A DNA stretch of 64,000 nucleotides from Psammoneis japonica (Eukaryota). Position 1 is the stretch's first letter. Every line of letters starts with the position of its first letter. The stretch is from positions 343,050 through 407,049 of the forward strand of contig QPGO01000054.1 of the NCBI GenBank assembly GCA_008632985.1. The letters run 5' to 3'. Made by a program: the position numbers and the translations under genes. The notes beneath the pieces were generated by a model. It saw only the letters and a program-made list of their open reading frames with translations. It did not search any database and was not told where the DNA came from. Shown here piece by piece: positions 5,829-45,069 of the stretch.

Positions 5829-5969
5829 TTCGTTTTCGCTGCAGTGTTCGGTTAGACAACGGCTCTAGCTATCAACAACCTACCATGGTTGTGTTTTTTG
5901 TGTATTATTTGGCCGGCGGCGGGCTGTTGGCTGCGGCGCTATCTGTGCGTCGTCGCGCGATGTACGTAG

Positions 5970-7447: not shown

Positions 7448-7750
7448 TTACAACTGCTTTCAATTAAATGCAGCACAGTGGTCCTGCTTGTCCATGTTGT
7501 TAACCAATGATTCCATTTTTTATGTGCAGGTTCTCTTCTACCGATCCTTGCAGTCCTGTGACACGGCCGCACCAGTGTCCGTCAGTCCTTACGGCCGGGC
7601 GGTAGTCGCAAAGATAATATCCAACATCCAACATCCCACGAAAAAAGATCTCGATCGCGAGTAGACTAAGTGCCGGCTGTGCTAAGCGATGCACAACTTC
7701 GAAACCGTCAACACTTTGCCACTATTTGCCGCCCCTGTGTCGATTATTCA

Positions 7751-8899
7751 ATGCCGATACTCAAGCGGAAGCCTCTTCGGAGGATTCGGAATTTCGGAAT
7801 GTTGATTTTCTTGCTTTCGCTCTCGTTGTTGTCGATCTGGTTCTTTGTTGCTGTTGCTGCTGTCACTGAGGACGCGTCATGCAGAAATAATGATGCAACA
7901 ACTGCCACAACAAAAGAAAATGTGCAAATCATTGGTGGCAAGAAAGTTTACCAAGTTCTTACTGCTGAACCATTCGAATCAATGGCGCTTCAGCTTGTAG
8001 AATCCTATCCAGATCGATTTGCCTATCATGCTACAAAATGGAACAAGTTTCCGGATGGAACAGACAAGATTCAGTTTGGCGGATTCGTTCCTGAAAACTC
8101 ATTGGCAGGCCAACACATACTGTTTTTGGCAAGCTTCCACGATAATGATACAACGCTGAGTCAGTTTCAGGTATTTATTTACTTGCTACACAGTAGCTTT
8201 TTGGAAAGCTTAACGATTGTTCTGCCGTACTATCCGGTGGGGACCATGGAACGCGTGGATATCGAAGACGGAACAATTCCGACAGCGGTAACCTATGCAC
8301 ACATGTTTTCAACCTTGCCAAGAAACTCTGCCAGGCCCACACGTCTCATAACGTATGATTTACACACGTTGCAAAATCGATTCTACTTTCACGACAACAC
8401 CGTCGCCTCGCTGTTTACGGCGCTTCCTCTGCTTGAGCAGAAGATCCTCTCAATATCATCAATAGACGCGGTTGCCTTTCCAGACGATGGCGCTGCCAAG
8501 CGATATGGATCTTACTTTTCACACCTACATTTTTTGACTTGTCGTAAGACACGAGGGAACCAAGACGAGGCGCACAAACGGTCCGTTGAAATATCCTCAG
8601 GCTCGGCACTTGGACGTCATGTTGTGATTGTAGACGACTTGGTTCAAACGGGAGGTACACTCTACGAGTGTTGCATGGCGCTCAAACAAGCTGGAGCACT
8701 TTCGGTTAGCGCTTTTGTTACGCACGCGGTGTTTCCGAAAGAAAGCTGGAAGCGATTTCTCAAAGACGGGGAGCTAACATGTCTGGAACGTTTCTGGGTG
8801 ACCAACTCGATCCCAACGACAACGAACAAGCTGCCTGTTAATGATGTTTTCGAGGTTTTGGACATTACGGAGCTGATCGTAAAGAATTTAGATGAGTAG
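7751..8899 (+). CDS. Ribose-phosphate pyrophosphokinase, class II (plant PRS3/4-like), with N-terminal hydrophobic segment
   Basis: Motifs KFPDG, LPYYPVGTMERV, DLHTLQNRFYF, FPDDGAAKR, VVIVDDLVQTGGTL, THAVF; intronless. Confidence 0.92.
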   Translation: MPILKRKPLRRIRNFGMLIFLLSLSLLSIWFFVAVAAVTEDASCRNNDATTATTKENVQIIGGKKVYQVLTAEPFESMALQLVESYPDRFAYHATKWNKFPDGTDKIQFGGFVPENSLAGQHILFLASFHDNDTTLSQFQVFIYLLHSSFLESLTIVLPYYPVGTMERVDIEDGTIPTAVTYAHMFSTLPRNSARPTRLITYDLHTLQNRFYFHDNTVASLFTALPLLEQKILSISSIDAVAFPDDGAAKRYGSYFSHLHFLTCRKTRGNQDEAHKRSVEISSGSALGRHVVIVDDLVQTGGTLYECCMALKQAGALSVSAFVTHAVFPKESWKRFLKDGELTCLERFWVTNSIPTTTNKLPVNDVFEVLDITELIVKNLDE

Positions 8900-9313
8900 T
8901 GACGGCTCCACGAAACATTTGAACCATACAGCTATGTCTTCCGCATCTTTCTTCAGAAAGTGAACACAATCCAACGAACAAAGCCACCCCGCCGCCAACC
9001 CGCAGCAGAGATATAAGCGGATTCGCCTGTTTCAACAGTGCTACTTTTGGGGGTTATCGCTACGTGTAGAGTAAATTCAATTCATGTGCATCTTTGTGTG
9101 CTACATTCTTCTTGCATCGGCACAACAGCCCCGTGGAAGCCTGAGAACCCCGCTATAGAAATTGAAAATTGAATCGCACAGTATACATATTTTTAATATG
9201 CCGAAGAATCTCTTTCTATGTAGCTTCTATGATAGAGAGACCAAACAGCCGCCTGTAAAGCGAAGAGTATTGAACCATTCAGCAATGTTCACGAAACTTC
9301 TTTACAGTACATT

Positions 9314-11589
9314 CTAATCTAGCATCTTCAACCATTTCTTGGACTCAACAAATGTGGATACAAAGCCTTCATCTCCGCTCATGGTGCTCTTCACGTGTCC
9401 GAGAGGAAAATATAGAGACACAAACTGACCTACCATTGGAAAAGTAGACATCGGACAGCCCCCTTTTACGATGTTGTAAAATGTGCTTGCGTTCTCGGCC
9501 TCTCGCTGACTGAACTCCTGCTCAGTCTCTATCATGACCGGAAGGCCGTGCTTCTTGCAGATGGCAAGTAAGTCAGCATTAGAGGGCTCAATCGACAACT
9601 CCACCTGATCACGAGCATTCGTCGCATAGAATAATACAAAGATCGGAGCAATATCGTCAAACTTCGTTGAGGAGGTGCAACGGATACAAGTTTTGAAGTC
9701 GTCGAGAATGGGGGGCCGCTGCAAGCCCCAAAGCGCTGTTCTGGAGCTACCGAATCCTCGCTTTGGATTGGTGGAGGTGGCATCTGACAAATATTCGAGC
9801 AATTCGACGCAAAAGCCTTGAACTGTAGAACTTGACACATCCTGAAGGACCGCCTTCGTCGGACCAGAGGTGTCAGCTAGCTTCAACGATTGAGCCTCCA
9901 AGTACTCTGCGGTATAAACTGAGTCATACGAAGGAGTTGAGCTAGGGACAACGACAGGAAATCGCGTGTAGTCACCAAGAGACTTGCGAGGAGGGAATTC
10001 GCCGAAGACCTCTGCCTCCTGTGGCCTTGCCTGACAGGTCATTGCAACCGGATTGCTCGCAGTATCGGTAGAACCAATTGTAAATACCACCATGCCCGTC
10101 TTCTCAAACAAGGACATACCGAGGTCAATTGCTTTTTCTCTCGGACCATTCACGGCTAACGATATTGGTTGGTTCGTGTTCAACCAAGAAGCGAGAGACA
10201 AAACGCTGCTTGCATCATCTGGCTTGGTCTTGGTGACATCCACTACCACTTTGCGCCAGTACTCCTCGACATTATCCTCTGGGAGGTCGGTTCCTATCTT
10301 GTAGTATGCATCAACTGTCTCATGACGAGTATATTCCGTCTGGGATGGGACTGCGCTTCCCTTGTGACCCGCAAAGATCCCATCAAACATCTTCTTCTCA
10401 AGAGCGTGGGCTGCGTTCTGAATCTCCTGCGCTCCGGAAAATGTTTCTTCCAGTTCTCGCATGGTGACTGTCTCGGGCACTACACAGTGCCTCAACGCGG
10501 TGCACTGGCCAGAGCATTCAATGCTGGCATTCATACGAATTGCTTCTCGAACGCCCTCCGTCCAATCCGTCGTTACCAAAGTGTTTGGTCCGCCAGTGGA
10601 TGCTACCGTTTTGGGATAGGACGACATGATGCTGGCTGCAAGCGAACGCGAGCATGTGGCATACAAGTTACCAGTGTGGTCTTTACACGAATGCGTGATG
10701 CCTTTGATGTCATCCAATGTACAAGACAAGTATGTCAACATGCCAGAATCCACTCCCTCTTCTTCCAACAGCTGCGACAGCAATTCTGTCCATCGAAACG
10801 AGTGCTGAACTGTGTTGCTTCTTCCAAGAACGACACAAGGAATACCAAGTTCCAGACATCGAATGGTTTTTCGGAACAGGTCAAGGAAGTTTGTGAAATT
10901 GCTCACGCAAGACACATAGATTGGCTTGCGGGATATCGATACCTTGCCGCCTTTCTCTTCCTCAAGAAGCATGTCGTTGAGACGTCGCTCAACAGTGTTT
11001 GCCATTACTGCTTCCTCCATTTCCGTAACGCCGTCTTGTTTTCCAAAATCAAGCGCTTGATTACCAATCAGAAATCCTGGAAGAATTATTAGAACAGGGA
11101 CGATGAGGTCATTTCTTGTCGGAGACGACGATTAGCAATGATCAGAAATGAAATTTACCTGCAGACGTGGTGAGAAACTGCTGCTCAACCCGACGAACCT
11201 GGGTTCTTACATCTGTGTACGGGGACCGGTATGTCGAAATGTGATCCTTTAGCATTTCAACTTGCGACGGCGTAGCAAAGTGCTGATGCCCATTTTCATT
11301 CCCAAATGCGTCCTCCGTGACAGAGGGACTAGACTGACCCGCCAATTTTTTGCCCTTGAGAATAGAGCGAATCTGCAAAGTATACGAGAAACGATGTCGG
11401 ATGAAACGCTGAACTCTTCACTCTAGACTAAGCTTGATCTCGAACTCCACTTACCGGTTCATCGTACCATAGTTTCGGATCAAACTTACTCAGATACTGA
11501 AGCGTGCTTTCACGAAATGCTTCGGTATCTGGGACCGGTAAGTCAAGAAAAGCGGAAGCATACTTGGTGGATGCAAAGTTTGTAGCCAT
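9314..11589 (-). CDS. Aldehyde dehydrogenase superfamily protein (divergent), 3 exons
   Basis: STGGPNT (GGKNP-like) and SGQCTALRH (catalytic Cys loop) motifs; introns 11373-11454 and about 11077-11158 join in frame from ATG 11589. Confidence 0.7.
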
Positions 11590-12232
11590 TGTAGTATGAT
11601 GGAAAGTGCGACGGAAGAAACGTCCAGCACCACGACACGCAAATACTTCCAATCCTCTGCAATGAGTACGCAACATTCAACTGACAGCGGGAAGAGACAG
11701 TACGATACGCACGATTAGCTTGTTAGAAAGGCAAAGGCTCGGTGACCAGTGTTGTAAGTCACGTCAAGACAACAAAGTGGTTGTGTGTAATGAGTTGACA
11801 AGATGTTGTGTCATGCACACGGTGTGTCAAGTACCAGCAAACAAGCAACAGTTTGTCTGCTTGTCTGTTTCGTCGAAACCTGTGCTCTGTGGCGCTGTAG
11901 TGCAAGCAAGAGGCGAGATTGGGATAGAGAGGAGCACGTGGAGCACCGCACTTCGCGCCAAAAAGTCGCCAGAATAACTTAGAGCCCGAAAGGCGGGGGG
12001 AAGCCCAGTCGTGATATTTTAGCATACCGGTAGTACCGAAACCATCCTAAGCTCAAGCTGTCCACAGACCTCTACTACTAATGAATATACTCTGTCGGTG
12101 TACGAAATCGAACGCAATGTGGGTAAAGCAATATTCAAATTTAGTTCGTACAAACCCATTATGTAGAATATGTTGAATGTAGTGCAGCAAGCAAGTGAGA
12201 ATGCCAATGGGCTATAAACCGTGGATACAGAT

Positions 12233-12334
12233 GAGCCAGTTTGAAAGCTTCAGGCAAAGTCTAGTGTTGACACGAAATCAACAGAGCCAGTTTGAAAGCT
12301 TCAGGCAAAGTCTAGTGTTGACACGAAATCAACA
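12233..12334. repeat. Perfect 51-bp tandem duplication spanning the HMG gene stop codon
   Basis: gagccagtttgaaagcttcaggcaaagtctagtgttgacacgaaatcaaca at 12233-12283 and 12284-12334. Confidence 0.95.
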
Positions 12335-13412
12335 AAGTCGCTGTCGTACGAGTCTTTCAGGTCACTGATTGTGGCAAGGACACGTTCCATCTCCGGAACA
12401 CTATCCTGAAGCACGTCTTCATCGTCTTGATCGTTCATAGCTTCCTCCAAAGAAATAGGCGTAAAAGGGTCCGTGTCCTCAGATGCTGTACTTTCTGTCA
12501 GGGTCACCGATAGGTTGTCTTTCAAGGATTCCGATAGTTCTTCCTTCAAGGAATCAGGTATCTCCTCTTTCAAGGTTTCAGACAAATCTTGTTTTAGACT
12601 GGCTGACAACTGATCCGACAAAGTCTTGGGTGTGCTATCGCTCAAAGTTTTAGCCGGTTCAGGTTGCGGCTCGGCATCTGGAGACGTGCTGCTTGCGGCA
12701 GAAAGAGGTGGGGTGTTGTCTTCGTCCGTATCTTCTTTGGTCTTACCTTCCTTTGTCCGCTTCCACTCTGCCAGCGCCTCAAAGTATTTCTTCTTCTCTT
12801 CCTCGGCGCCTTGTTCATACCAATACCTTCTATCGGTACCAAGATTATTCCACTTGGCCGCAATGACACGCGCCATTTCTCCGAATCCCAAGCCACGACG
12901 GGTATCAGGCGAAGCGTCTCCGCGGATCATGCGTTCCCTTTCTTCCTGAAAGAAAAGATTATAGGCTGACAATTTGCAAGAGCAAGACATGAGACTGGCG
13001 GGCAAAAAGGAAAATCCATGTTCCCGGATTGGGCCGCAATACCGGCAAGAAACCGACAACTGTTGAACACAGAAGATGAACAAACACACGCACCGGAAAG
13101 GGGGCGCTTCGGTTTATCCTTGGGCTTCCGCCACTTTTTCCGTCGTGGGCGTTTCTTTTTTGGTGGTCTAACATCCACTGGTTTCGCCATCATTTGTGCT
13201 GCCAATTGTTGCGGTGTAGCTGGAAATCCCCTCCCGTTTGCCAGACTCATGAGAATCGACGTACTTAGATTCATTTGCTGTTGCTGATGTTGGTTCGCTG
13301 TTTGCATGGCATTTGCCATTTCCCATGGGTTATTATTGAAGCATTGTATGAAGGATTCAGCCGGGAACTGACCACGGCTATCAAAATGCATGTTGTGAGG
13401 ATTATTGTTCAT
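12301..13412 (-). CDS. HMG-box protein (paralogue A), 2 exons
   Basis: KPKDKPKRPLS|AYNLFFQEERERM...GFGEMARVIAAKW after splicing intron 12966-13093; start codon uncertain. Confidence 0.88.
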
Positions 13413-14617
13413 ATTACTGGTCGACAGCAAGAGAGGAAGCACTTTGCGTTAGATTCGATACGAAGGGACAGCGACAAAGGAAAGGCAGACTCAACGGGAT
13501 GGGTATCATGTCGCCCACCGCAGCTGTGCTTACCTGGGCAGAGGCAGGGCGAAGCTTCCCGCTTTGTGCAAGTGAAAGAAATGAGATGCAGGCAAAAAAG
13601 TGAATGAAAGATTTTCCCATGTTCCTGCGGTCCAGCGGGTGGATCGCGCCAAGGTGGGTGGCGGAAATCGATAATTGTTGTATTTATTTATTATCCTGGC
13701 TACTATACCCACGTAATCATACGTAGAAATGATAGTTTTTATTGGAGAGACAGACAAAATTGCAAAGAAAGCGTGTTAAATGGTTTTATATGAATTTTAA
13801 TAAAGTATGGATACATATAAAGAGAAGAAGCGAACCTCCTATGTCTTCGAAGACATATCCGTTAAGTAGCGGGGAAAGGTGAGACAAACCGAAAATCCTC
13901 CTCTCACATAATCGCTCTTCAGCGCTGTGCGTGTGAACACTTCACATCTCTCACACATTAGCATCTTGTACGACTAAGAAGAAGAATCCATTTCACGAGC
14001 CTGCCGTACCGGTACTCCGCAGTATGGATGTTGTATTCCTTTCACTGCTAAAGAGAGACATACTGCACTCTACTCCCTCTTCTCGTAGCGATAGTCACTC
14101 CCTCTTAGAAGTAGAGAGCGTCGAACGGAATCGTGCATACTGTTAAATGCAGCCGAAAGCGAACCAGTGAACTATTTGCAGTGTTATCCGTAAACTGGCA
14201 ATGGTTCTAGAGTAGCTTCCAAAACCAATCCCTCCGTTGGCTGGCTGCTGCGGCATTCCTGACGACCGTCGTCGTGTCCGGCCGCGCGCACTAGGGAGGT
14301 CTGCACGTCCGGCCATCGCTCGCGTGACGGAACACAAGATGACCTACAGTACCGGTACAAATTAGAAAACTACTACTCTAGCTAGCTAGTAGTAGGCCGT
14401 GTCATCACAGGATACAGTGGGCTTGATAGAATTGAGAATCCCTAACTTCAGGCTACGTGGATGTCGTTCCCACCTAAGCAGTTCATGAAACCTTTCCTAC
14501 ATTTGGTTGATTCATTACTTTGTCTCTACCGGTAGAGCGGGTCGACAGAAATGTGTAGTAGGATGAGATGCTACTGAGCCTTATGATGTGTATTCTTCCT
14601 TGTCTCTCTTGTTCAGC

Positions 14618-16183
14618 TCAGGCGCCTGAGCCCACGACCTCGTTTTCAAACCAATCGCTCTGATCAATATTGAAAACATCTCCATTAGCACTCATTTGCA
14701 GCCGCATTGGAGGCCACGTTTGTCCTTGCACAACCACTAGTTGCAAGTTGTCTACATCGTCGACCGTTTCGATTTTTGCAGTTTCGACCCCTAGATTTCG
14801 ATGAATGAATTTTACAGGCAGGTCGTAAGTGTCATTCACATCTTCATAAAAGTCTTCAAAGAAAGCAGCATTGGCCACAATGTCTGGATCTGCATGGGCA
14901 AAAATAACCAATGTTAGTGCCTCAGGGGATTCTTCCACATTGGATTTAATCCAATCCAAATTGGCTTCCAACCGACGGTCCCATTCATCTGTATCCTTGT
15001 TCTCGCCACCGACCAGGTTGATCCCGACAAACAAAATCTTCTTGTACAAGAAGGCAAAGTTCTCCTCATATCCTTCATCCGTCTGTCGACGGACAGTATA
15101 CAACTCGGATTCTGGCCAGAACTTGACTTCATAGTTCAACACCGTGTCATACCACAACTCCAACGCTCCTTCTGGATCGGTGCAATCATTGTACTCATTG
15201 TCACCCACCACGAAAAAGGTAGGAACACTGGCATTGCTGTAGAGTCGTTCGACCGCATCATAGGATGCTTCACTGCAATTGGTAAGGGACGGGCTGTTCC
15301 AGTCTCCCAAGTGAACAAGAAACGCACGGCCGTCGTCATCGGGAAGAGCACCCAAGTCGCGTGGCAAATTCTGAGCAGTCGTTCCCTGAAATCGTCCGGC
15401 AATGGCATAAAAGGTAACAATGTCCTCTCCTTCACTTGTGGGAGAAAGGGAAGGATTCAACGTATCAGGCTCTTCTGTTGGAGCACTTGAGGGCCGCATC
15501 GTTGGAATCCCTGTCGGGGCCGGAGTGATGGTTGGTGCAGACGTAACTGTAGGTGCCGCAGTCGTTGGAGCTTTTGACGGCATGGACGTCGTTGGAGCAA
15601 ACGTTGGTGATGTCGTGGGTGGTTTCGGAGGCGTGGGTGGAAACGTAAGTTGCGTAATTGCAGAAGAATCATCCTTATTATCATCGTTCGATGCCAATAC
15701 CGCTGCAACAATCACCAGAACAATTGCACCCACCAACAGAGCAATGCTAATGATAATGATTGCTCGAAAGTATGGAGGCGCTGATTTCACCCAACTCGGT
15801 ATAAAACCATCTTGACTGTCCTCCAACTCATCCAGATCGACGGGAGTCGTGATTACTTTGGGAGGAGGGGGCGGTGGAGGGGGTGGGGGGCGCGTCACTG
15901 AATGCTCATCGACTCCCAACATGGAAGGCTCGTCCCCCTCGACGACATCAAACGATTTCATGGGTCGCGACGGTCCACCATAATTCGAAGTACCAATCGA
16001 AGACTCATCATCAACGCGAGACGTTCCATTCCTCGTAGTATCCCCCGGCAGCATCAAGCTTTCTCCATCCAACGATACACCCGTGTCGCCAATCAACGAC
16101 CCGACTCCATCCGTCGCGGGAGGTGCCTCCTTTTTCGAACGGGTAGGGCTTGGAATTTTTGTTCCTTTTATTCTAGACAACAT
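14618..16183 (-). CDS. Single-pass membrane protein with Pro/Thr-rich (PT) stalk and calcineurin-like metallophosphoesterase domain
   Basis: TM segment IIIISIALLVGAIVLVIVAAVLA, PTxAPT repeats, VHLGDW and VVGDNEYNDC motifs; intronless 521 aa. Confidence 0.8.
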   Translation of the reverse strand: MLSRIKGTKIPSPTRSKKEAPPATDGVGSLIGDTGVSLDGESLMLPGDTTRNGTSRVDDESSIGTSNYGGPSRPMKSFDVVEGDEPSMLGVDEHSVTRPPPPPPPPPPKVITTPVDLDELEDSQDGFIPSWVKSAPPYFRAIIIISIALLVGAIVLVIVAAVLASNDDNKDDSSAITQLTFPPTPPKPPTTSPTFAPTTSMPSKAPTTAAPTVTSAPTITPAPTGIPTMRPSSAPTEEPDTLNPSLSPTSEGEDIVTFYAIAGRFQGTTAQNLPRDLGALPDDDGRAFLVHLGDWNSPSLTNCSEASYDAVERLYSNASVPTFFVVGDNEYNDCTDPEGALELWYDTVLNYEVKFWPESELYTVRRQTDEGYEENFAFLYKKILFVGINLVGGENKDTDEWDRRLEANLDWIKSNVEESPEALTLVIFAHADPDIVANAAFFEDFYEDVNDTYDLPVKFIHRNLGVETAKIETVDDVDNLQLVVVQGQTWPPMRLQMSANGDVFNIDQSDWFENEVVGSGA

Positions 16184-17619
16184 CTTTTCATCCTCCCCCT
16201 GCTTCTGACAGCAATGTGATAGATACCTTAGCTACTCTTTGCTTTCAACGACGACAGCAACGAACTCAGAACAACAACAACACACTTCTTGTGGCTGGTG
16301 CGTGTTCCATTCTGATTCGTTGCGAAACTGCTATCGTGGCAATTTTGATTTTTGAGATACGAGACGCACGTGGAATTCTACATCAATAAAAAACTTCATT
16401 CTTGAAGGTTACATTGGCTTTTTCACGTATTATATTCATTCGATTATGAAGGTGGTTTTTGAACGTTGACCTTATGTATAGATACGGTCGCGTATGTTGC
16501 ATCAAAAAATCAATCTTGTCAATTTCAAATAATGATGGCCCAGCAGGGCCAAGAAAGAAAAAAACAAGCGACCAGCAAAGAACTTTTGATCGATCATGGC
16601 AAAGATCTTGCATGAGTTGTTCCTCCCTCAACCATGTTACTTACAGCACAGGTCCAAGCTTCCATCTCTAGAGTTTCTGGTTAATTTTGACTGTCACCCA
16701 TTGTCGCAGCAGCAGAGCACAGCTTGCTTGGCTGGCAAAGTGCCAGCGCTTCAGAGAGCCAAAAGAGACGAGCGGCATGTTGTTTTCAAACAATTGGCCA
16801 GGTGGCTCAAATGAAGTTCATTGCTCAGTTGGGTGTCAAACAGTGAGACAAAATCTCCATGAGATGTGGTGTGTCATTGGGCAGGGGGGGGGGGGACAAG
16901 AAGGGAGAGACAAAAATGGCACCGCCATGATTGTCAAGAGGTGCAACAAGAATGGCCGGGGTCATCTTTTCATCAGTGGTTTCCTCCAATGGCATGACAG
17001 AGTTTTTTCCATGCCAAACATTGTTGTGTTCTTTGGCTTTGTGTTGAGGCTTCACATTGGCTGGTGGCAAAGCAGCTGGGACACAACCAAAAGCAATGAG
17101 ATCAGTCAAAAGAGCGCGCGTTGCCATGTGGTGGCACCAGCAGCTGCCCAAAGGGCCACCTGCAGGATGCACTCTTGAACTGAGAGGAGGTGTTGGAGGT
17201 GCAGCATCAACTCCAGCAGTCTTCTCAGCAGACACAAAATCACCTGCGATGGCCAGTGTCTCTGCCTGATTTTTTATGGCTGTCATGTGTCATCGCATTT
17301 CTCAGCAGCCACAGGAGCAGGAGCCACAGAGCAGCAGGCACAGGAGATGGCCAGAGAAACAAGATCACAAAAATGCTCCACTGCATGCATGTGTGCTGCA
17401 TTTTTTGGCAAAAAAGCCAACTTTGGATCCCACAAAATGCTTCAAATGAAGTTGGTTTTGAGTGTGCATGTGTTGGCAGCAGCATCACAGACAGTCTGGG
17501 CAAGGGCAGGGACAGTCACATCATTGTTCCACTGCAGCAAAGCAGCCTGTCACTTTGGGTGTTGGGCAGTTGCCTCTTGTTCATGTGGGCATGCAAAAGT
17601 CAGAGATCCAAAGGCTGTG

Positions 17620-18550
17620 GCAGCTGCATGAGTGGAAGGGTGGTGTTGTCAATTTTTGTTTTGTTGCAAAATGCTGAGCTGCACCTGGGCAGGGTCGAGG
17701 CTGATGCCTTGGTGGTCTGTTGCAGCAAGAAGGCAATGTGCCAGCAACAACCACATTGGAGCAAATCTTGTTGATGTGAGTGGCAATGTGGGCATCACAG
17801 TTGGCTGCATTTTTCTGGAAGCAAACACAAGCATGCCTGGTTTCAATGCTGCTGAGCTGGTGCCAGAAAGGTCATTGTTGGCCTTGGTTGACAAGAAAGT
17901 TTCATGATCAGAAACACACAATGTCACCTGCAGTGGGCACACTGGCACAGATCCTGTGCACTCCAAAATGACATGGTGAGTTGCAGAGATGCTGATGGAA
18001 CTGTTGTGAGTGCCAAGATGACCGGCCAGGTTGCAAGGTGTGGAGGTGTTGCACCACAAAGCTTTGAGAGAATGAGTCTCTCTGAGATTCTTGTTGCTGT
18101 GTTGGTGCTGCACAGCAACCAAACAAGATTGCTCTGGCTGCAAGCAAAAATCTCCACAGAGATCTGGTTGCCATTGGTGTGCTGGACAAGTTTGTGTGTG
18201 TGTCTTGCCTCTGTCCAGCAAGGGTGCTTGCAGGATTCTTCTGATCTTGCTTCCTCATGACAAGTGAGTTGGCTCGCTGCTGCCATTGTTGTGCACCCCC
18301 TGCTGGCTTTTTTGGTCTTGCCACCCATCCACACACTGCAAGGTGAAAAGCACATGTGCTTTTGCTGATTGGGTGGGATGAGAAGGGCTTGCGCAGCTGT
18401 GTGTTAGTTTGACCAATGCTCAGGCACCTCCAAAGTGGAGGCACCAGCTGCACATGCTCAAGTTTCCAGCCAAGCAACAGAGCAAAAAGACCAACAAAAA
18501 CTTTGAAGTTTTTGTGATGAAAGAAGTGCTGGTTTGTTTGTGCATGAGTC
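17620..18550 (+). repeat. Diverged direct repeat, copy 1 (copy 2 at about 22730-24220)
   Basis: Shared blocks gctgcacctgggcag, ggagcaaatcttgtt, gagctggtgccagaaagg, gcaagcaaaaatctccac, cctccaaagtgga, ccaacaaaaactttgaag in the same order. Confidence 0.9.
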
Positions 18551-18799
18551 ATGACATTCAGTGTGGGTGGCCACACTGGCACATGCTGCGCATTGAAAAT
18601 GCACCAGTTCAATGACTCAGTCCCACATTTTGTTCCAATGCATGAAAATTTCTGATGCCATTGCATTTTTCATTTGTCCTCCATCAATGCATCATCCATG
18701 GTTTGTTCCTTTCCTTTTTAATCCCCCAGTCTGTCTGTGGTTGCTTCCATTGGCTTTCATTTTTGCAAATCATTGCCAAACATCAACCCAAGTGGCAGC

Positions 18800-19750
18800 C
18801 TGTTGCTGTGCCTCCAGGAACCACAAATCTGGGTTTTTGATGTTTTCATCATCCTCGTCCTCTGCCTGCAACTGATTGCCATCATCTTGGGTTTCTTCTC
18901 TGCTGTCCATGCACTCCCAGAACTCCTTTGACCAAACTTCTTTGTTGCACACCTCTGCATCCTCGTTCAATCTCTGCTTGTGGATCTGTTTTCTCAAGTC
19001 TTGGCACCTCTCCAGCCCTTGCTTGTTCCAACCGTGATTTTTTTCTCACTTGCCACTCCCATTGCTGCTTTTTGCATTTGGAATGAGCTCCTTGTCTCCA
19101 TTTTCCTTCAAGTCTTCCTTCATTGTGCTGTGCATGTGTGTCTGTCACTTGCTCCAATTGTTCTCCAAAATCAGCAGGCCGAGGAATGCCTCATTGCTCA
19201 CAGACACCAACGACCTGTTCAAGCCACATCTTGACTTGAACACATGCTTCCACAACATCTTTCCCACCACAACTGGCAGGAAGTGTGTGATGAAATGGCT
19301 TTGGGCCATCATGTTGTTCCCCCTGCCCCTCTCTGGCATTTCCTCTAGAGATGGCATCTTGGCATTGCTTTCTGCTTGAGTGTTCCTCTTTTTGTGATCC
19401 ATGCACCCTGTGAACTCACAAAACACCAAGCAATGTGTGTTGGCAGTGTCGCAGTTCCCCATCCATGGCACACTCCATTTTGATGCAGTGCTTGCACAGA
19501 AGAATTCTTTCTTCAGTTCCCCCCATTGGTGTTGTTCCTCTTTCTTGTTGTTTGCCTTCATGCCTTGTCCTTCAACATGTCCCAAGTTTGTGCTCTCCTT
19601 TCTTGGGGCACGGCAAGCTTGGATGGCACTGTCTTTGCAACCCTTCCACTCTTGCTGTTGTCAAGAGCCTTTTGATTTAGAAACTTGTGCTGTCTAAACA
19701 ATGCACTCTTGCAGCAGCTCTCCAGCACAATCTTGTCCCTGTCACTCATT
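18800..19750 (-). pseudogene. Relic of a transposon accessory-type ORF
   Basis: Fragments CKSALFRQHKFLN, VSVSNEAFLGLLILENNWSKW and HGWNKQGLERCQDLRKQ resemble the LFR-KF / SDEAF-L-LENN-W / GW-G-RY-L pattern I recall from diatom DNA-transposon ORFs; frameshifted and Tyr-free. Confidence 0.5.
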
Positions 19751-20059
19751 TTGTTGCTGTGTTGCTTTTTCTTGGCAAACAACCTGCAAGGAAAGATGCT
19801 TGTCACACCTGCAAGGTTTAACTTTTGGCCTCTGCTTGATGAATGAAAAGGCAGCAAAAAAGACAAAGGAAATGAAGCCAAGTTCCAACTTGTTTTCCTG
19901 GGGCCCATGCATGCAGTGATGGTTGAACATGTCACATTGGCATGACCAGGGAGGCTGAGACTTGGGTGCACGCCACTCAGAAATGGTTCTCAAAAACACA
20001 GGGACTGGAGCTTCCACTGGCAGTGACAAACAAGCACATGTGCTGCACTGTCAGAATGC

Positions 20060-20200
20060 ATTGCCCCACCATGAAGTGCACAATTGGAGCCACAGAGGCA
20101 CACATTGAAGGTGTTGGCCAAGTGAGAGCTAACCCAAGGTGTCATTCTGGCAAACCCATTTGTGATTGGGTAAAATTTGCTCAAACTGGACAATCTGCTT
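20060..20200 (+). mobile_element. Plavaka-like transposase C-terminal fragment
   Basis: GATEAHIEGVGQVRANPRCHSGKPICDWVKF matches the recalled RAxPxY...PxYDW motif with Y->C. Confidence 0.45.
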
Positions 20201-22729
20201 GCCTTGGTGTGCCCCAGTGGGCAACCATCTTCTGCAGAGAGACACCAACCAGTTTAAGTCTCAATCATTTTTGAATGACACACAAAGACACACACATTGG
20301 TTGGGGATCCCATGTTTGATCCAAGCAAGGTGTCCTCCTTGAAAAGAAAGCAGGTGCTTGTGTTCAAAGACAACCTCACTCTCAAGGAAGAAGAGCCAAG
20401 ATGGGAAGTCAAAACCTAAGAACAAATGGGTCATGCAAGTGCACCTGAATGAATTTTAAAATGGCAGGGCAGTCCAGTTGACAAGAACAGTGCAGATTGT
20501 TCTCCTCCTGAAGAAAGCAACACTGCAAGCACCTGTTTGGGCTGCTGAATGCAGGCATTGACTGTGGGCAAACCGGCTCACCCTTCTTCCTGGGATCATC
20601 AAGTTTTTTGCAGAACTCATTGTCAAATTTTTCAATGTGCCACCCTCCCTGTCTTCCAGACAAATGGGCCTTTTTTGGATTGACAGTGGAAATGCATTCT
20701 CCGCCAAAAGGAGCACTCTGATGAAGGCTGCCTTTCACCCTGACAGCTTGTCCAATGTTTCTCTCATCAGTGAAAATGACTTCAATGAAGGCTTCTTTTG
20801 TGACAAACAGGTTGAGGTTTTGACCAAGATGAGCCATGTCAAAGAAGCAATTGCCCGAGTCCCTTGTGCACTTCTTGATGACAAAACCCTTGCAGACTCT
20901 GTCTTTGCCACCATGGCAATTGCCAAATTCTCCCAGCTGGTTTGTGAAGGCAGCACAAATGTTTTTCATTGCATTCTCCTCAGCTGTTTAATTGACTGTC
21001 TTTTTGCTGATGCAATGAAAAACAAGAACAGCACTGCAAATGTCCAAATGTGACATCCAGCGCTTCCTGTCAGCACAAATGGATGCTTGACCCCTGTCAA
21101 GATTGAGTGGCACAAAAGTGAGTGCAAGCAATGTGTGTCCAATGCTTGTGGCCAGCCCAACCCAGCTTGCAAAGTGAGGAAATGTTCTTCCAACACAGTT
21201 CTTTGGGGTCTTTGCACACCCTCCTGATGTTCTTGAGTCCTGGCCTCTCCATTGGGTGGGCACTTTCCGTGGATGGTTGACAGCTGCAGAGGAACTGCAG
21301 GAGAGGAGATTCTTGTGCAACACCATCATTGGGAAGCTCCGGTCCACACACAACTGGGTTGTTGATGCTGGGATGTGTTGCAGGCAAGCCAATCAACGAA
21401 CTGGTGGAATGACAAAAGGAGGGAGCGGATGCTTGAGAAGGTGCTGCTTGGACAGTGACAGATTTGTGTGGGGTCCGGGGTGCACAGACTCACAATGGAG
21501 AGTGAGTCTGGGGTGGAGACAGAGCTCACTCAGCTGCTGCAGCAGTGGGGGAGACAAAGATGCAGTGAGTTCACCAGGGAAAGCTGGTGAACAAAGTGGG
21601 TCCATCTTCAAGAAGGGGGGGGGGGGGGCTGTGAAGTGGTCTGCAAAAAAAAAACACTGACATTGAACACATCTCCAAAGCTGTGACATGATGTGTCATG
21701 GCAATCATCCACGCAAATGATCCTTCAACAGCTGCACTCTCTGCAAAGGTGGGAGTCATCATGCAATGAACCCTGGCAGTTTGCTCTCTGGCTTGCAAGC
21801 CCAAAAAGTGGGGTTTGGTGGCTGCGCTGCCAATGTGAGGAGGAAGCATGAGCTGCACCCTGACAAAATCATTGAAGGGGGGCATGTCAACTGACATTGC
21901 TGCACCCCCGTAGAAATGGGGGCCATTGGATGAACCCCAGCAGCAACATCAGAAAATTGTCAAGAAGCACAGAACAACCACAAGCTGTGCCCCCCTGCAA
22001 GCATCATGGGGGTCATGGGATGAATGTTGGCAGCACAGCAGACATCTCCAATGTCATCCAATGCCAACCCTGTGATGCAGCTCTGCAGAACTGTGAAGAA
22101 ATGAAGAATGGCTCTGGAGATGGTGACTTCCTCCCACTTTTGACTGCATTCTGATGCTGCTTCTTTGATGGGCGAGAGTGGCGACATCCCCTGCATGCCT
22201 TTAAACTGCCGGAAGGTGATGAATGGTGACCCATGATGAACAAAAACCAACAAGTGCTGCACAGCAGCAGGTGTGTGGTGGAGAAGTGTCACTGCAGTGC
22301 ACAAAAATTGTGAGCAAAATTCCAACTGAACAAAACAAAGATTTTGGAACAAACAAACTTGTGCATTGAGTGGGACATCAAACCATGGGGAAAAAAGAGT
22401 TGTTGATTGGCACAAAAAGAAAACAGCATCACCCTAAAAAAGCTTGTGATTTGTGCAGTGCATCCATTTGGAGAACACATGGGGAGGATGCCAGCTGGGA
22501 GAATTTGGAAGAAAATGTCTGTTTCATGTGAAGTGGGACAAATTAAAAATCCAGGAAGCATCAATTAAATTTCACCACATTGCAGGAGTCATGCAGGTGC
22601 TGTGGGAGTCATGCATGGTTTTGTGGAAAAATGCAGGTTTGTCACAATGAATGTGGGTTGTCCTGCATTTGAGGAACAAACACCCAACAGATTGATGCAA
22701 AACCTGCATGGAACTTGCCTCTGACAGTG

Positions 22730-24220
22730 TGGCAGCCACATGTGTGGAAGGGGGTGAAGTCATCAACTGCTTTGTTGCAAAAAAAAAAAACTGGGCTGCA
22801 CCTGGGCAGAGTTGAGGCTTGTGTCTTGGTGGTCCTGCAGCCAGAGAGAAGGCAAGCATCAGCAACAACCGCACTGGAGCAAATCTTGTTAAGATGAGTG
22901 GCAGCATGGGCATCACAATTTTGACCGCATTTTCCAGAAGCAGACAAGTGTGCCTGACTGCTGGGCAGTGGGTGAGCTGGTGCCAGAAAGGTTGTTGTTG
23001 ACCTTGGTTGATGAGAAAGTCATGTGGTCAGAAGCACGCATTGTCATCTGCAGGCACAGTGGCTGGCACACAAGATTCTGCACATTTTGAAATGACATGG
23101 GGGGGGGTGAGTTGTGAGTTGCAGGGATGCTGACAAAAATGTGAGATGACCAACCAGGCCACAAGGCATGGTGTCAGCCATGCAAAGCTTTGAGGATGGA
23201 TTGGCGAGCAGAGGCAAGTTTTTCATGTGCTCGTCACAATCATTTGAAAAAAGGATGTGTCACACCAAATGAGCACACTCGCCACAAAAATTACAGGGAT
23301 GGGCAGAACTTTGTCTGTTCATCAGATGTCACAGAGTGCACAAACAACAGTTGTGGCCACACCATGCAGAATGTTCAGCTTGTTGACTGCAGACATGTCC
23401 ACAGAGCCAGAAATGCCAATTGTTGGCATTTGTTCCTGGAAAGTTGTTTCTTGTCTCCCACAACCAAGCAGTGCATTTTTGGCAAAAACTGGCAGTTTGT
23501 GAAACAAACAGCTTCACCAAATCCAACAATTGGCAGCCCCGATGAGGGCCAGACACCCCATGAGCATTTGGGGATGCTCAGAGGCATTGCAAAACAACAC
23601 AGGTCAAGTGCCTCTGCTCTGCTTGACAGCCCATTGTCACAAGAGAATGGGTCTCTCTCAGAAATTGTTGCTGCCTGTGGCACTGGTGCACAGCAACCAA
23701 ATGCATTGAGAAGATCTCAACAACCAGACAGGATCATCCTGCAAGCAAAAATCTCCACGGTGATCTGGCTGCCATTGGCAAATGTTGAGCTGTCGGCATG
23801 TCCTGCCCCCCTGTGTGGTGAGGATGCTGGCAGGATTTTGATCTTGCTTTCTCTTGACAAGCAAGTTGCTGCCATTGTTGTGCACTCCCCATTGGTTTTG
23901 TTTGGTCTTGAAATCCATCACTCATTGCAAGGCAGAAAAATGCACATGCTTTGAGAACTCAGAATTTTCTGTGGCCACCCATCATGTCTCCACACTCTTG
24001 CTTGCAACAGGCACACATTTCAACCCTGCTGACTGGGTGGGACAGATGAGCAGGTGGCTTGTGCAGCTGCACTCCAGTTGACCAATGCTTGGGCTCCTCC
24101 AAAGTGGAAGCACCAGCAGCAAATGCTCAAGTTTCTAGCTCAAAAGTGGAGCAAGCATGCCAACAAAAACTTTGAAGCTGAGGTGATGAAAGATGCACCA
24201 CTGGCTCTTTTGTGCATGAT
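22730..24220 (+). repeat. Diverged direct repeat, copy 2, with about 440 bp extra (about 23205-23640)
   Basis: Colinear with 17620-18550; several differences are TG versus CA swaps. Confidence 0.9.
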
Positions 24221-25296
24221 GCATGTTTGACACTCAAGCTCATTTATGAACACTGGTGGTCAAATCTAAAAGATTTGACTTGTCAATTGAAGTGGGTGCC
24301 AAACTGCAAAAAGCAGCAGGGAGACTGGTGAAACATTGAAAAGCAGCTGGCTGGCACTTGCAAAACACAACAAAGGCAGCTGCTGTGTTCTTCATTTTCA
24401 AATTTGGGTGTGCTCTCCTCACAACCTCCTCAGCATCACTGCAAGGCACAGTCACCAGCAACAAATTGTCTTGTCTCTGGAACAACACTGGTTGAACAAA
24501 GCTCACATTGCTGGATGGCACTGCTTGCTTTGTGAAGTGCAACCCTCACAGCGGTTGGGATGACGGTGCTGGCCCAAATGGAAAAAAGTCCCAGGCAAGT
24601 CAGTGGTGCAAGTCTTGAAGATCATGATGCTCTTTGTGTCATTTCAAGAAAAGAAAGAGGCAGTTTGTTGGAACCCAGCCACCGCTGCTTTTGGCTTTTG
24701 GCTTTTGGCCTGAGGGTTGCTGAGAAATGAGCACCATCCACACAGTGTGCAGCATGAGCCACACACACACACGCTGGCCCACATGGCCAAGGCATTGTGG
24801 ACACAAAAGAGCAAGGTTTTCAACAATCTTGTCTTCCAAACTCTTCTTGTGAGTTCAGACTCTCATTTTCTGCCAACATCCAGAATCTCAGGAAGTGTGA
24901 GATGGGTTGGAAAGGCTGTCACAGTGTGTTCCCAACCAATCACCTGGGACCACTGCACCTTGCTCTGGCAAGAGTTCATCCAGGAAGGATTGACAAATGG
25001 CTTGAGCTGATTTGCACACATGACTGCCTCCTGTTGCAATGGACATGTTTGAGCTCCATTTTTCAGCACCTCTGAACAGGTGGAACGGTCTCAACTTGGT
25101 CAGATTTTCCATGAGCGGACATCAAGAGTTCACACAGCGCCAATGGAATGACGCATTCTCGAGAGAATGGACACTTTTCAAGATGTGATTTGTGCCGTCT
25201 CCACCTGTCGCGTCGGTTGTCATTGACGACGAAATGGCGCATGTGAACGGCACAGCACAGAGTCCATGCTGGCATGAGTGCCGAGAACAGTTAGTC

Positions 25297-25352
25297 CTAT
25301 GTTGATTTGTCTTGTAATGTTGTTCTATGTTGATTTGTCTTGTAATGTTGTT
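25297..25352. repeat. 28-bp tandem duplication at the edge of domain 2
   Basis: ctatgttgatttgtcttgtaatgttgtt x2. Confidence 0.9.
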
Positions 25353-25577
25353 GCCTGCGGAGTCAGAACAATGTGATGTTGGCATGACTGCCCGACGTCG
25401 CAATGGCTCAGTCGCAAACCACAAACTTCCGATTATTGACATATGATCTAAAGCATAATACATACTATCAGGCAGGTAAGCTCTGCATCTTTGTCACCGT
25501 CCAAAGTGGTTTTTCTCCACGTAGCGGTTCTCGCCGTACTGTACAGAATTGCTGCTTGTTTCTCTACCAGTAGGTGT

Positions 25578-37173: not shown

Positions 37174-37502
37174 GATTGAAGCAATGAGACTTGATCTATG
37201 GACTGCAGGTGAGAGGAAAAACTGGAATTAGCAGCGGAGTGACCAACGGCAGTGGTAATAACAACAAGCGACTACAAAGGACCGAGTCTGAGGTTTGAGG
37301 AGGCACCAGCCACCCGACGACGTCAAGCCAACAAGCAATTCTCCAAGCTCCAGAAGTTGCTCCAAGCAAGAGCTTTTTGTCTTCGCGTCCAGCGTCGCGC
37401 GCCGCGCGTCGCGCACGCATGCAGCTACGGCACCATGCAGCCAAATCGAACGACGGTGTCCCCGCGCCATTGCTGAATGCCGTTAGAACTCCGACAGCTG
37501 TA

Positions 37503-38695
37503 CACCCAACACCAACACCGCAGTCGTCCAACATCGCACAACACAACAGTTGTGCAGCATCGATCGTTGAAGCTCATTGAACAAGCCAGAAGATCCGCAT
37601 GCCCTGATGGTCACGAAAGAAGAAGCCACCTCAGAGGTGGCCCGCACGCCCAGTCCTCAAAAGGAATTGTCTCCAGCGAAACGCGCCAAAGTTGGTCCCA
37701 AGGTTGATGTTGCTTTTGCAGAGAGTTTGGTTCATGCCAGCACACAAAGGCAGAGTGACGAAGAAGATCCGCGGCTTGTCAGACGGGCCGCTTTGTGGAG
37801 GAGAATTCGTCGCCAATGCTGAGACAAGAGTTTCTGCACTTTGAGTTTCTGCTTTTCCAAGATGGAGTCTAGTGATTCAGGAGAAGAGGTCATTGCTTGG
37901 TGCGGTGTCACTGCAGGCCATCTTGCAGATGATGGCAACAGCACCCACGTGTGTGCAGGAGGTGTGGGCAGCCAGGGAAACCCCATTCTCTGCGAGGTCG
38001 GTGCAGCGGTGTCCAAGTCTGCGTCGACCAATTTTTTGATCTTCTCCACAAGGAAAGATGACAGGATCCGGGTGATGGAGATGCTTCTCGCTGAGAATTT
38101 GGGTCTTGGCAATGATTTTTTCACTCTTCCAAATGAAGGAGCAAGCTTTGAAAATGGGGCAATGTTGATCAGGTTCGCTGCCCAGCAACGTGGTGCCATC
38201 AGCACGGTGAGCACCCCTTGTTTGGCTCACAATGGGAAAGCTGCAACAGCTGGAGACATTGCAGTCACTGATTGAAAATCGAGATGGCACAAGTCAGCTT
38301 GCCAATGATGGAGATGGTGGGGCCATTTTCATCTGCAAAAGTGGTGATGGTTGGTGCATCCCATGTGCTGCGCAGTTGTGCAGATGGTTGCCACAAATCC
38401 TTTGGTGTGCCTTTGAAATCTATTTTCAAGGCTCACTCACTTTTGGGAGGGGCTCCTGCTGCTCCTGCCACAGAGTGTCATCAGTCAAGCCCTGCCAAGT
38501 GCAAATTCTTTGAGTCCCACAATGTCTTGCATGTTGAAGATGTTGCGTTTGAGAATGTGGGTGACTTTTCTGAATCTCACAATCTTGCACATGGTGAGGC
38601 TGTATTTGAGCAGGACAACTCGCTTGAACGGCCAATCGCGAAACTGGGATGAAGGGCCATGCCACACCTCATGCCTCACCCAGGCACCAAAAATG
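37503..38695 (+). pseudogene. Trypsin-like serine protease pseudogene inside TpA-depleted domain 3
   Basis: WCGVTAGHL (TAGH His motif) and NDGDGGAIF (GDSG-like) motifs; in-frame TGA at 37820 and frameshifts; 2 TA in 1.2 kb while many CG remain. Confidence 0.6.
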
Positions 38696-39120
38696 ACTAA
38701 ACACGCGGATGAATCGCGTGCTTCATGTTGTCTTCCATCCCGTGGACTACGCGCAGGTAAAAAAAAACAGGAAACATCTAATGTTGGTCGTATTTGATTG
38801 ATTTGATTGATCATTATTGCCGGACGTCAATGCGGAATGCGGTAGTACAGTAGTCCGCCTTCTTCCCCCATCGATTCATTTAGTGCATCGGATCTCAATA
38901 TGGATACGGTATTGTTTTATGATAAGCTGCAAGAATTGTTTCGCCTAATGTAAATCGACGTTCAGCTTGTTTTCAACAGCACAGCATCTCTATACCATGC
39001 GCCCATCTTAGCTTGTGACAGCAATCTAGGAGCCTATCTAACGTTTAATGTGCAGCATAAAGTCATTCAAGATCTTAGAGTCCCAAAAGTCGAAACAATT
39101 ATGTATTGTGCAGTTCATAT

Positions 39121-40006: not shown

Positions 40007-40209
40007 GGTCGTGTGAAAACTAGAGTGGCGAAATGGATGTTTTCGATTTTGTGTGGAAAAGTGGAGATGACCATCACTGGATCGCCCAACGTCCCCGTGA
40101 CGGTTAAATGTCTATTTAATTTTCCGGAAAGCTGAATACATTGATGCTCAACACATCCGTTCAACGTCATATTGCATGTTCATTGCCTTATTTAGAATTT
40201 ATTGCATAA

Positions 40210-43549: not shown

Positions 43550-45069
43550 TGAAAGCTCTGTCCAGCAAGCACTTTAAAATGTCTAACTGGCAATGATTTC
43601 ATTTCAGCAAATCCAGCAGACCTTCTCTTTGGTGTCCAAAGTCTCATCTGTTGACTCGTGCGAACAGTGGAGATTGCGCACTCCCTGACACAGACACCAA
43701 AACTTGAGGCATCCAGCAGCGAAGCCACAGATGATCCCTCCGCATCCAGCATCCTCGTTCACATCCAGCGAAGCATCTCTGGAGGTGTCGCAGTCACAAA
43801 CATTGACCCGGGCACAGACCTTTTGGAAATCATGAAAGCTCATCCAGAAGCACCCGTCGTCTCTTCAGCTTCAAATTGCAACTGCTTGGCAATGCTCTTG
43901 TGCTTCTTCCACGCGCTCAAGTGATCGCTCCACTTCCCCTTCCACTCGTGGGTTCCCCAAGGGTTTCGTAACTTCATGAGCTTGCACGGTTTGGCTCCTG
44001 ATGTGGGAAGACCTGTCGCATTGCGATCAGTGACTTCTGCAGCAGATGTGACACTGCAAGCATGACCGGCAACGAGTCCATCCTTTTCGAGCATTTGCTC
44101 ACCACTCGGCCCGTCCATCTTGCGACAGTCCATTTCACCAATAGAAGCGGAAATGAGAGCCTTTTGCTTGTCACGCTTTTTAAGGAGTGTCCACAATTGG
44201 TCCTTGGAGCATTTTTCCTTGGTCGTGCCAAATCCACAAGCACGCTTGTTGCTTGGATTCTTGCCATCCTTGAGAGCCACCATGTCTTCCCAAACCCAAG
44301 CGTGACTCTTGGGGTCCAACGACATTTGAAACACGTCATCGCCTGTCATGGACAGCCAACCCCACAGGACGAAACCACCAGAAACGTCTGCACAACTGCC
44401 ACAGAACTTGGCGCAAGCCTTCTCGAGAAGGATCGCCCACACAGTTCATTCCCCCGTTGGGTTTCATGAACCAAGGCTTCTTGGAACCCTTCTTGCAGGG
44501 AATGCGGTCATTGACCGTGATGATGACCCATCGTTTGTGTTGTGGATCAAACATGCGAATCTTGTGCGTGCCACAAGGACTGCACTCCTTGGTGAGAAAC
44601 ATGTGACGAATCACATCGGGAAATTCCGAAGCACACGCAAAGGCAGCCACCAACTGGCAATCACCGACAGCACCTTGACACAAGTCACTCGGCTCAATTT
44701 TCCCCTCAAACAACTGAGGTCTCTTTCCCCTGAACGCACCCAAATCTTGTGCTCTTGCCCAATCGGTCTCCTTTTGCATTTGTGTTGCAGCAGGCTTGGA
44801 CCTGTCTTCTTTGGAATGATCTCCGAGAGCGGCTGCTCCGTGAAACTTGTTGTCTTCGCATGGATGTCCAAAGCAGCAACAGCAGACAAACCTCCACAAA
44901 CAGCCGTTTCCCACATTGAGACAGCGCTGACAGAGAACCGTGGCACAGGGAAAGCCGTGGATTCGAGTGGATTTGTAGAGAAGCCCAATGGCAGACATGA
45001 AGGGGCAGCGCACAAAAGATTCCAGAGGAACCCTGCCCTGCCACTCTCAATTTCCTTGAAGGTAGGCAT
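43550..45069 (-). pseudogene. Calpain-like (CysPc) cysteine protease pseudogene inside TpA-depleted domain 5
   Basis: DLCQGAVGDC, WAILLEKACAK, GLVAGHACSV and KLRNPWGTHEWKGKWSD motifs; frameshifts near 45010 and 44445; conserved Tyr positions read Cys or His. Confidence 0.92.

Follow-up and report, generated by a model that had tools for sequence, protein, structure and literature searches.

RESULTS

Seven Domains Nearly Free of TA in a 64-kb Window

We analyzed a 64,000-nucleotide stretch of the Psammoneis japonica genome assembly (contig QPGO01000054.1, positions 343,050 to 407,049 of the forward strand), referred to below as the window and numbered from its first base, in which the dinucleotide TA is almost absent from seven discrete domains. 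Over the whole 64-kb window, the observed/expected ratio (o/e) was 0.40 for TA and 1.36 each for TG and CA. An earlier note, made from the sequence alone, had listed seven such domains and had put about 23 TA in the 8.6 kb of the largest; all seven were present with coordinates right to a few bases, and the figure of 23 proved exact. The domains (called TA-free below, and given without strand) are listed here, with the expected number of TA taken from the background rate of 0.0383 TA per bp.

5968-7448: TA-free, CG-poor domain; 2 TA observed, 57 expected; 16 CG, CG survival 0.19
16683-25291: main TA-free domain, 8609 bp; 23 TA observed, 330 expected (Poisson P ~2e-108)
37502-38697: TA-free domain with moderate CG loss; 3 TA observed, 46 expected; 38 CG observed, ~67 expected, survival 0.57
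40208-40795: small TA-free domain with CG almost normal; 2 TA observed, 23 expected (P = 5e-8); 30 CG observed, 33 expected, survival 0.91
43472-45062: TA-free domain with mild CG loss; 6 TA observed, 61 expected; 66 CG observed, 90 expected, survival 0.73
51229-53444: TA-free, CG-poor domain; 3 TA observed, 85 expected; 24 CG, survival 0.19
59230-64000: TA-free, CG-poor domain continuing past the window end; 15 TA observed, 183 expected; 30 CG, survival 0.11

TA survival was 0.10 or less in all seven domains, and their edges are sharp, with normal TA spacing back within tens of bases. The main domain further contained 66 CG (survival 0.14), 1012 TG, and 957 CA.

The earlier note had held that the domains contain only transposon relics, duplicates, and pseudogenes. 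This stood for three of them, in which the targets could be identified: a calpain pseudogene and a pseudogene of an unnamed family occupy two domains, and a long terminal repeat (LTR)-like repeat pair lies in the main domain. The other four are unrecognizable, with no accepted protein-family match. Six-frame Pfam scans returned no families in the main domain (16683-25291) and no accepted family in 37400-38799, 40100-40899, 59199-64000, 51200-53502, or 5950-7502. A match to Enterotoxin_HS1 in 5950-7500 reached 19.4 bits against a curated cut-off of 25 and was regarded as spurious. Because TAA and TAG cannot occur in TA-free DNA and TGA is the only stop left, the domains carry long false open reading frames (ORFs) in all six frames, of up to 269 aa and with much Cys, His, Trp, and Gln, which gene callers would list as hypothetical proteins.

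TA Erasure Is Independent of CpG Decay

Across the four strongest domains, which total 16.4 kb, o/e was 0.04 for TA, 0.11 for CG, 1.80 for TG, and 1.84 for CA, compared with 0.56, 0.99, 1.18, and 1.16, respectively, in the remaining DNA (the background), so that the excess of TG and CA reported previously was borne out. The G+C content of the domains was unchanged (0.46-0.51). Besides TA and CG, the other twelve dinucleotides stayed within 0.78-1.28 of expectation, indicating that, apart from CG, the loss is TpA-specific. Pyrimidine-purine steps as a whole were nearly constant, at 0.2366 per bp in the domains and 0.2403 in the background. The combined gain of TG and CA amounted to 0.082 per bp, and the losses to 0.050 for CG and 0.036 for TA, so that gain and summed losses match. 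CG alone cannot supply the gain, and deamination of 5-methylcytosine (5mC) at CpG covers only part of the signature.

CG survival varied from 0.11 to 0.91 across the domains, an unequal depletion that was absent from the earlier note. TA was erased even in 40208-40795, where CG is nearly intact, and TA loss therefore stands apart from 5mCpG decay, as had been claimed. The completeness of TA erasure where CpG was barely touched points to two processes, not one: TA erasure is faster than CpG decay and independent of it. CpG survival within the domains also depended on the flanking bases, being best at CCGG (0.46) and GCGC (0.40) and worst at TCGA (0.10) and ACGT (0.12), which indicates that CpG decays faster at A/T-flanked sites.

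Direction of Change in Two Pseudogenes

Two domains contain sequences with intact relatives, against which the changes could be polarized.

43607..45069, minus strand: full-length calpain (Peptidase_C2) pseudogene with at least 3 frameshifts, matching residues 7-491 of a 491-aa orthologue
37607..38610, plus strand: pseudogene of an unnamed 334-aa family (relative P0175), aligned in three pieces separated by two frame changes; a diverged stretch contains an in-frame stop

The alignment of the calpain copy spans at least three frame changes, and we therefore regard it as a pseudogene. It was compared with 47 orthologues (the first 47 relatives, E ≤7e-43; the nine entries with an organism name, some of them truncated, all read as diatom genera). 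Among 277 conserved columns, 228 matched and 49 did not; 28 of the mismatches were single transitions, with a TA origin in 16, a CG origin in 8, and neither in 4. All 11 columns with Tyr in at least 70% of the 47 orthologues were replaced, by Cys (8), His (2), or Arg (CGT, 1); thus the motifs EKAYAK, GSY, and GHAYS read EKACAK, GSC, and GHACS in the window copy. In 11 environmental contigs, the homologous part of the gene held 9-29 TA (o/e 0.41-0.71), compared with 3 TA (0.09) in the window. The second pseudogene gave the same picture: each of the five Tyr of P0175 was replaced by Cys or His (a local-alignment script counted four). Combining the two, 16 of 16 Tyr positions of intact relatives read Cys, His, or Arg. 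It had been left open that intact copies might themselves be TA-free, but the relatives carry Tyr and normal TA; since they are not TA-free, the alignments indicate that the direction of change is TA to TG or CA.

The Trp beside the catalytic Cys in the calpain motif GDCW (~44660, minus strand) has changed from TGG to CAG (Gln). This double change must go through TAG or CGG, suggesting that short-lived TA or CG intermediates allow TG and CA to interconvert.

The family of the second pseudogene is small, with 19 proteins in a word-indexed search (P0177-P0196, listed with P0175), all hypothetical or unnamed, and no Pfam or PHROG match was found for it. A PDB profile search gave a weak match to streptogrisin B (E = 0.48), and a structure model (mean predicted local distance difference test score, pLDDT, 48) gave a best Foldseek E of 5.8e-3, to chymotrypsin-fold proteases. 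Together with the motifs GHLA, DSLIF, and GDCGAIF, these weak fold matches hint, as a lead only, at a peptidase of chymotrypsin fold that uses a cysteine nucleophile. In place of GDCG in the GDCGAIF motif, the window copy has GDGG.

Changes on Both Strands and in an LTR-like Repeat

Replacement of Tyr by both Cys and His occurred within the one calpain gene, and TG and CA are about equally numerous in each domain. These data indicate that both strands were acted on. The main domain also contains a direct repeat whose copies have diverged from each other.

17616..18553, plus strand: left copy of an LTR-like direct repeat that lies within the main domain, 72-76% identical to the right copy
22728..24225, plus strand: right copy, with extra inserted sequence, pairing with 17616..18553

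Over 769 aligned bases, the copies were 76.6% identical and differed by 119 transitions, 42 of which fell in 21 adjacent TG<->CA doublets. Each doublet means one ancestral site resolved independently in the two copies. The one-strand bias and the stasis after insertion that RNA-level editing fixed by retrotransposition would leave were not found.

The Edited A Precedes a Pyrimidine

TA survival relative to background depended strongly on the flanking bases. It was highest at TTAA (0.86; 20 sites against 48 in twice the length) and fell through CTAA/TTAG (0.22), CTAG (0.14), GTAA/TTAC (0.051), CTAC/GTAG (0.038), ATAA/TTAT (0.025), ATAG/CTAT (0.02), and ATAC/GTAT (0.009) to 0 at GTAC and ATAT. 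A four-parameter model, in which the per-strand loss rate of A is set by the next base and the two strands are additive, fitted all ten classes (likelihood-ratio chi-square 112, 3 df, compared with uniform loss), and the fitted relative rates were 3.2, 2.6, 1.1, and 0.16 with T, C, G, and A, respectively, after the A. Survival alone is blind to strand, but the products are not. By mass balance, same-strand TG takes 0.75 of the loss at YTAY (Y, pyrimidine) but only 0.11 of the loss at RTAR (R, purine), and TAY codons became Cys in 8 cases and His in 2, indicating that the A before a pyrimidine is edited. The edited A is thus that of 5'-T-A-Y-3', and TTAA is nearly immune.

We asked whether the TA-poor gene at 56704-58737 (TA o/e 0.30) might be an eighth domain at an early stage and rejected this, as its Tyr stands at 1.8% and TG and CA are not raised. 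Its remaining TA are mostly of the RTAY or mixed classes, and 3 of 39 are in the spared YTAR class. This intact gene, which has kept its Tyr and the ordinary TA context classes, is a control.

Gene-sized Units

The calpain domain is TA-free from ~6 nt after the ATG to ~135 nt past the stop. On its 3' side, only two TA lie just past the stop, in the spared contexts TTAG and TTAA, and no poly(A) trace was seen at this edge. The domain of the second pseudogene is TA-free from ~105 nt before the ATG to ~85 nt after the stop. Judged by these edges, the mutation unit is approximately one gene or transcript, with its flanks spared. Such sharp, gene-sized units would be easier to explain by homology- or RNA-based guidance than by chromatin that spreads.

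Support from Sequencing Runs

Contigs of a public, Illumina-like run (X1; word depth ~50-110) covered positions 5500-25499, including two of the domains, and their longest pieces showed 0-3 differences each. The earlier note had made its proposal depend on support in reads, and read-derived contigs gave such support over this range. Two TG<->CA doublets, at 6352/3 and 24220/1, differ between the window and X1 and hint at recent change in place.

Seven small insertions or deletions (six of 1 base and one of 3 bases) also distinguish the window from X1, in 5988-6359 and 16387-16557, and five of the seven lie in the first TA-free domain. These may reflect differences between haplotypes or assembly errors at homopolymers, and they bear on the frameshift calls in the pseudogenes. 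Between 18173 and 21507, the word depth of X1 was 76-112, compared with ~50-65 elsewhere, and several contigs stop in loose ends; this indicates that part of the main domain has near-identical copies elsewhere in the genome, which at 95% likeness or more are TA-free too.

Neighboring Genes and Other Features

The neighboring ORFs are ordinary eukaryotic genes with few introns, encoding, among others, Trm732/THADA, phosphoribosyl pyrophosphate (PRPP) synthase, a mitochondrial carrier, a GDSL lipase, a WD40 protein, an FAD monooxygenase with ankyrin repeats, HMG-box proteins, a ubiquitin-like protein, and cytochrome b5 together with a molybdopterin oxidoreductase. Among the best 120 matches of the PRPP synthase, those with names came from diatoms, one bolidophyte, and one chrysophyte, at 55-66% identity. 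With the calpain relatives, these matches point to a stramenopile alga, most probably a diatom, and the window seems unlike Bigelowiella.

A second run (X2) is RNA-like: on the minus strand, its contigs leave out 82-nt stretches bounded by GT..AG. These contigs align to genes and not to the two domains in 5500-25499, where being uncovered does not mean being silent. Two such omitted stretches, 11075-11158 and 11372-11455 (minus strand), probably represent introns belonging to the gene in 9314-11131 and its upstream exon. A third run (X3) gave no matching contigs. Self-comparison of the window also revealed short tandem or near-tandem direct repeats, with units of ~55-105 bp and 76-95% identity, at 41706-41882, 46088-46274, 47597-47799, 59078-59205, and 60359-60472.

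DISCUSSION

We consider it probable, though well short of certain, that the domains are the saturated footprint of a targeted TpA to TpG or CpA hypermutation acting on the genomic DNA of selected units. The mutator would act on gene-sized pseudogenes and repeat relics, would convert TpA to TpG or CpA (A:T to G:C) on either strand, and would halt within tens of bases of the unit edge. As for its chemistry, a TadA/ADAT2-like enzyme may deaminate adenine in DNA to inosine; the preference of the TadA family for U-A makes TadA/ADAT a reasonable candidate in view of the T-A-Y rule. The enzyme would be recruited by a mark or guide to foreign, duplicated, or silenced DNA, and the CpG loss of the older domains may be a separate, slower decay via 5mC, which diatoms place on transposons. 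A second, domain-restricted process converting TA to TG or CA, as put forward in the earlier note, is supported by the 16 of 16 replaced Tyr, the TA of the orthologues, the mass balance, the uncoupling from CG, and the agreement with X1.

The window domains probably belong to a kind of which there is a single, very recent description, from another lineage. The signature, for which no described system had been known when it was first noticed, has been seen directly in mutation-accumulation lines of Bigelowiella natans, in which, according to the available text of the preprint, two integrated viral regions accounted for 231 of the 302 de novo nuclear substitutions, and 230 of these 231 were A to G or T to C, all of them on TpA (Mettrop et al., bioRxiv 10.64898/2026.01.13.699255). 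The rate was ~6e-7 per site per generation, ~1000-fold over background, in some lines only, and the genome contains 124 TpA-poor, CpA+TpG-rich clusters; an ADAT2-like candidate was proposed, with reference to DNA editing by ADAT2 of amphioxus and Trypanosoma (bioRxiv 10.64898/2026.01.13.699255). As far as that text goes, the two cases share the change of TpA to TpG or CpA on both strands, discrete regions, TpA-poor and CpA+TpG-rich clusters, many ORFs that cannot be annotated, some affected host-like genes, and a suspected adenine deaminase, and the process in the window may well be of the same kind. They differ in host (a stramenopile, probably a diatom, here and a chlorarachniophyte there) and in the targets that could be identified, which here are two gene-sized pseudogenes and an LTR-like repeat, compared with viral insertions in B. 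natans. CpG loss joins the older domains here, whereas the available preprint text makes no mention of CpG or of diatoms; nor do the T-A-Y rule and the immunity of TTAA found here appear in that text. The B. natans rates were measured directly, whereas the process here is known from its sequence footprint. Three observations are new here: the uncoupling from CpG decay, units the size of a gene with pseudogenes of host type among them, and a T-A-Y rule that spares TTAA.

Several points weigh against this interpretation. In the calpain gene, 3 of the 16 TA-origin changes break the T-A-Y rule, in a count that is itself biased by Tyr codons. Every T-A-Y event can also be written as T to C in R-T-A on the other strand, so that the events do not in themselves demonstrate adenine deamination. 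The four most heavily mutated domains have no recognizable protein and cannot be polarized, and the LTR-like pair was rejected as a polarizer, because CG ancestors alone (~22 expected) account for its 21 doublets no worse than CG at lower density plus TA. The mass-balance and context analyses take the composition of the neighboring DNA as ancestral. X1 may be the assembly's own sample; it excludes gross error but is not fully independent. The placement of the lineage is imperfect, as the PRPP synthase tree (15 sequences) was unresolved with a long window branch. No deaminase or other effector was found in a non-exhaustive scan of the window ORFs and further stretches, consistent with the earlier statement that none is evident in the window. 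Finally, the available text of a mutation-accumulation study of Phaeodactylum tricornutum reports no such hotspot (PMC6604790).

By strand symmetry, T-A-Y equals R-T-A, and an identical footprint would arise if a JBP/TET-type oxidase or another modifier altered the T in R-T-A, with the resulting 5-hydroxymethyluracil (5hmU) or 5-formyluracil pairing with G and giving T to C. In dinoflagellates, 5hmU substitutes for T preferentially at TpA and TpC. However, no such enzyme or base is documented in this organism, the only direct precedent proposes, in its available text, an adenine deaminase (itself unproven), and a U-A preference is on record for the TadA family; we regard a thymine-centered process as unlikely. 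How the units are chosen concerns targeting only and fits either chemistry. Mutation triggered by duplication, in which a unit is recognized by pairing with a partner as in repeat-induced point mutation (RIP), agrees with the two domains that match single gene units almost exactly and with the sharp edges and lack of spreading, and many diatoms are described as carrying DNMT4, which is related to fungal RID. It is nevertheless a tentative proposal that we would hold with some doubt, because the hypermutated insertion of a nucleocytoplasmic large DNA virus in B. natans is single-copy according to the preprint text (bioRxiv 10.64898/2026.01.13.699255) and because X1 depth is at the single-copy level over most of the main domain, in a count that diverged copies would escape.

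A repair bias or defect confined to heterochromatin, be it over-active short-patch repair of T:G to C:G, error-prone synthesis, or loss of mismatch repair, would need no dedicated mutator. In E. coli, very-short-patch repair depletes CTAG, and in the four strongest domains TA loss accompanies CpG-depleted, likely methylated DNA. We judge such an origin very improbable, since TA is erased in 40208-40795 with CG nearly intact, hardly any change falls outside TpA and the next-base rule is clean where repair loss would give a broad spectrum, and the B. natans process, by the preprint text, is on in only 11 of 15 lines. If editing of ADAR or APOBEC type had instead occurred at the RNA or cDNA stage, the domains would be edited retrocopies. 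Both pseudogenes align over the whole length of their relatives without large gaps and are approximately transcript-sized, and ADAR favors a 5' U, as stated in the preprint Discussion (bioRxiv 10.64898/2026.01.13.699255). Yet both strands were hit within one unit, with Tyr to Cys beside Tyr to His and TG matching CA in number; once duplicated, the LTR-like copies came to differ by TG<->CA doublets; the calpain 3' edge bears no poly(A) trace; and the two doublets between the window and X1 suggest recent change in place, which together leave this account hardly credible. Nor do we give more than the slightest weight to the idea that there is no mutational footprint and that the domains keep the base composition with which foreign DNA arrived, arose by selection against TA, or are artifacts of assembly or base calling over modified DNA. 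The lack of recognizable ancestry in the four strongest domains and the several 1-nt differences from X1 in 5988-6359 would suit it, but the loss of Tyr at 16 of 16 positions and the normal TA of the orthologues largely refute it for two domains, homologous repeat positions read TG in one copy and CA in the other, unlike a deterministic miscall, and X1 contigs at a word depth of ~50-110 agree with the window.

Targeted hypermutation of TpA can be set beside other known systems. Like fungal RIP, which depends on RID/DIM-2, the changes are transitions only, affect both strands, occupy sharp units that include gene duplicates and transposons, and ruin coding capacity. RIP, however, is C to T mostly at CpA, makes TpA, and lowers G+C, whereas here TpA is erased and G+C stands at 0.46-0.51. 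C to T change at CpA, TpA gain, and AT enrichment were not found; with TpA erased, TG and CA enriched, and G+C kept, the description of the process as a mirror image of RIP holds. Diatom transposons, according to the available text of one study, carry DNMT5a-dependent cytosine methylation (PMC9998398). Decay of 5mCpG accounts for the CG to TG or CA part in the four strongest domains but cannot remove TpA, the loss of which is complete where CG is 0.57-0.91 of normal. TadA and ADAT2-ADAT3, the tRNA adenosine-34 deaminases, read an A after U, like the T-A here. Eukaryotic ADAT substrates have G, A, or C after A34, a 3' context unlike the T/C preference here. Wild-type TadA is described as dependent on UACG and the evolved TadA-8e as favoring UA (PMC12296453). 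Natural genome-wide editing of algal DNA by the TadA/ADAT family is unproven, and no such gene was found in the scanned parts of the window. ADAR hyper-editing, APOBEC3, and AID resemble the present case in that deaminases drive locally dense transitions against selfish elements or at defined transcription units. Their substrates, however, are RNA, cDNA, or single-stranded DNA under transcription, and the retrocopies they leave are strand-biased, whereas here both strands are changed and change continued after insertion; ADAR, moreover, is a family of animals.

A wider proposal is that a T-A-Y-specific DNA adenine deaminase is an ancient defense across the stramenopile-alveolate-rhizarian (SAR) group, including diatoms and chlorarachniophytes, guided by homology or RNA to gene-sized units, host duplicates among them, with edges sharp almost to the base pair, and serving alongside 5mC as the adenine counterpart of RIP. 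This is possible, but we would put it forward only with reservation. Literature searches found no report of TpA-erasing hypermutation in diatoms. In environmental diatom DNA from 70 loci (254 kb, mostly contigs <2 kb), no TA-free, TG/CA-rich stretch was found, in a sample of genomic flanks too small to generalize; two high-G+C loci were low in TA for another reason.

So far, a single experimental study, the 2026 preprint on a chlorarachniophyte, has reported targeted mutation of adenine in resident DNA. A natural deaminase that acts on DNA adenine in a defined context would be of interest for base editing, and transgenes in such algae might be at risk. If our interpretation is true, the T-A-Y rule and its sparing of TTAA reduce the range of enzymes to be searched, genes of host type are silenced one unit at a time, and the process is separated from CpG methylation decay. 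The footprint would then lie in a second, ecologically dominant algal lineage, making the process widespread and not a curiosity.

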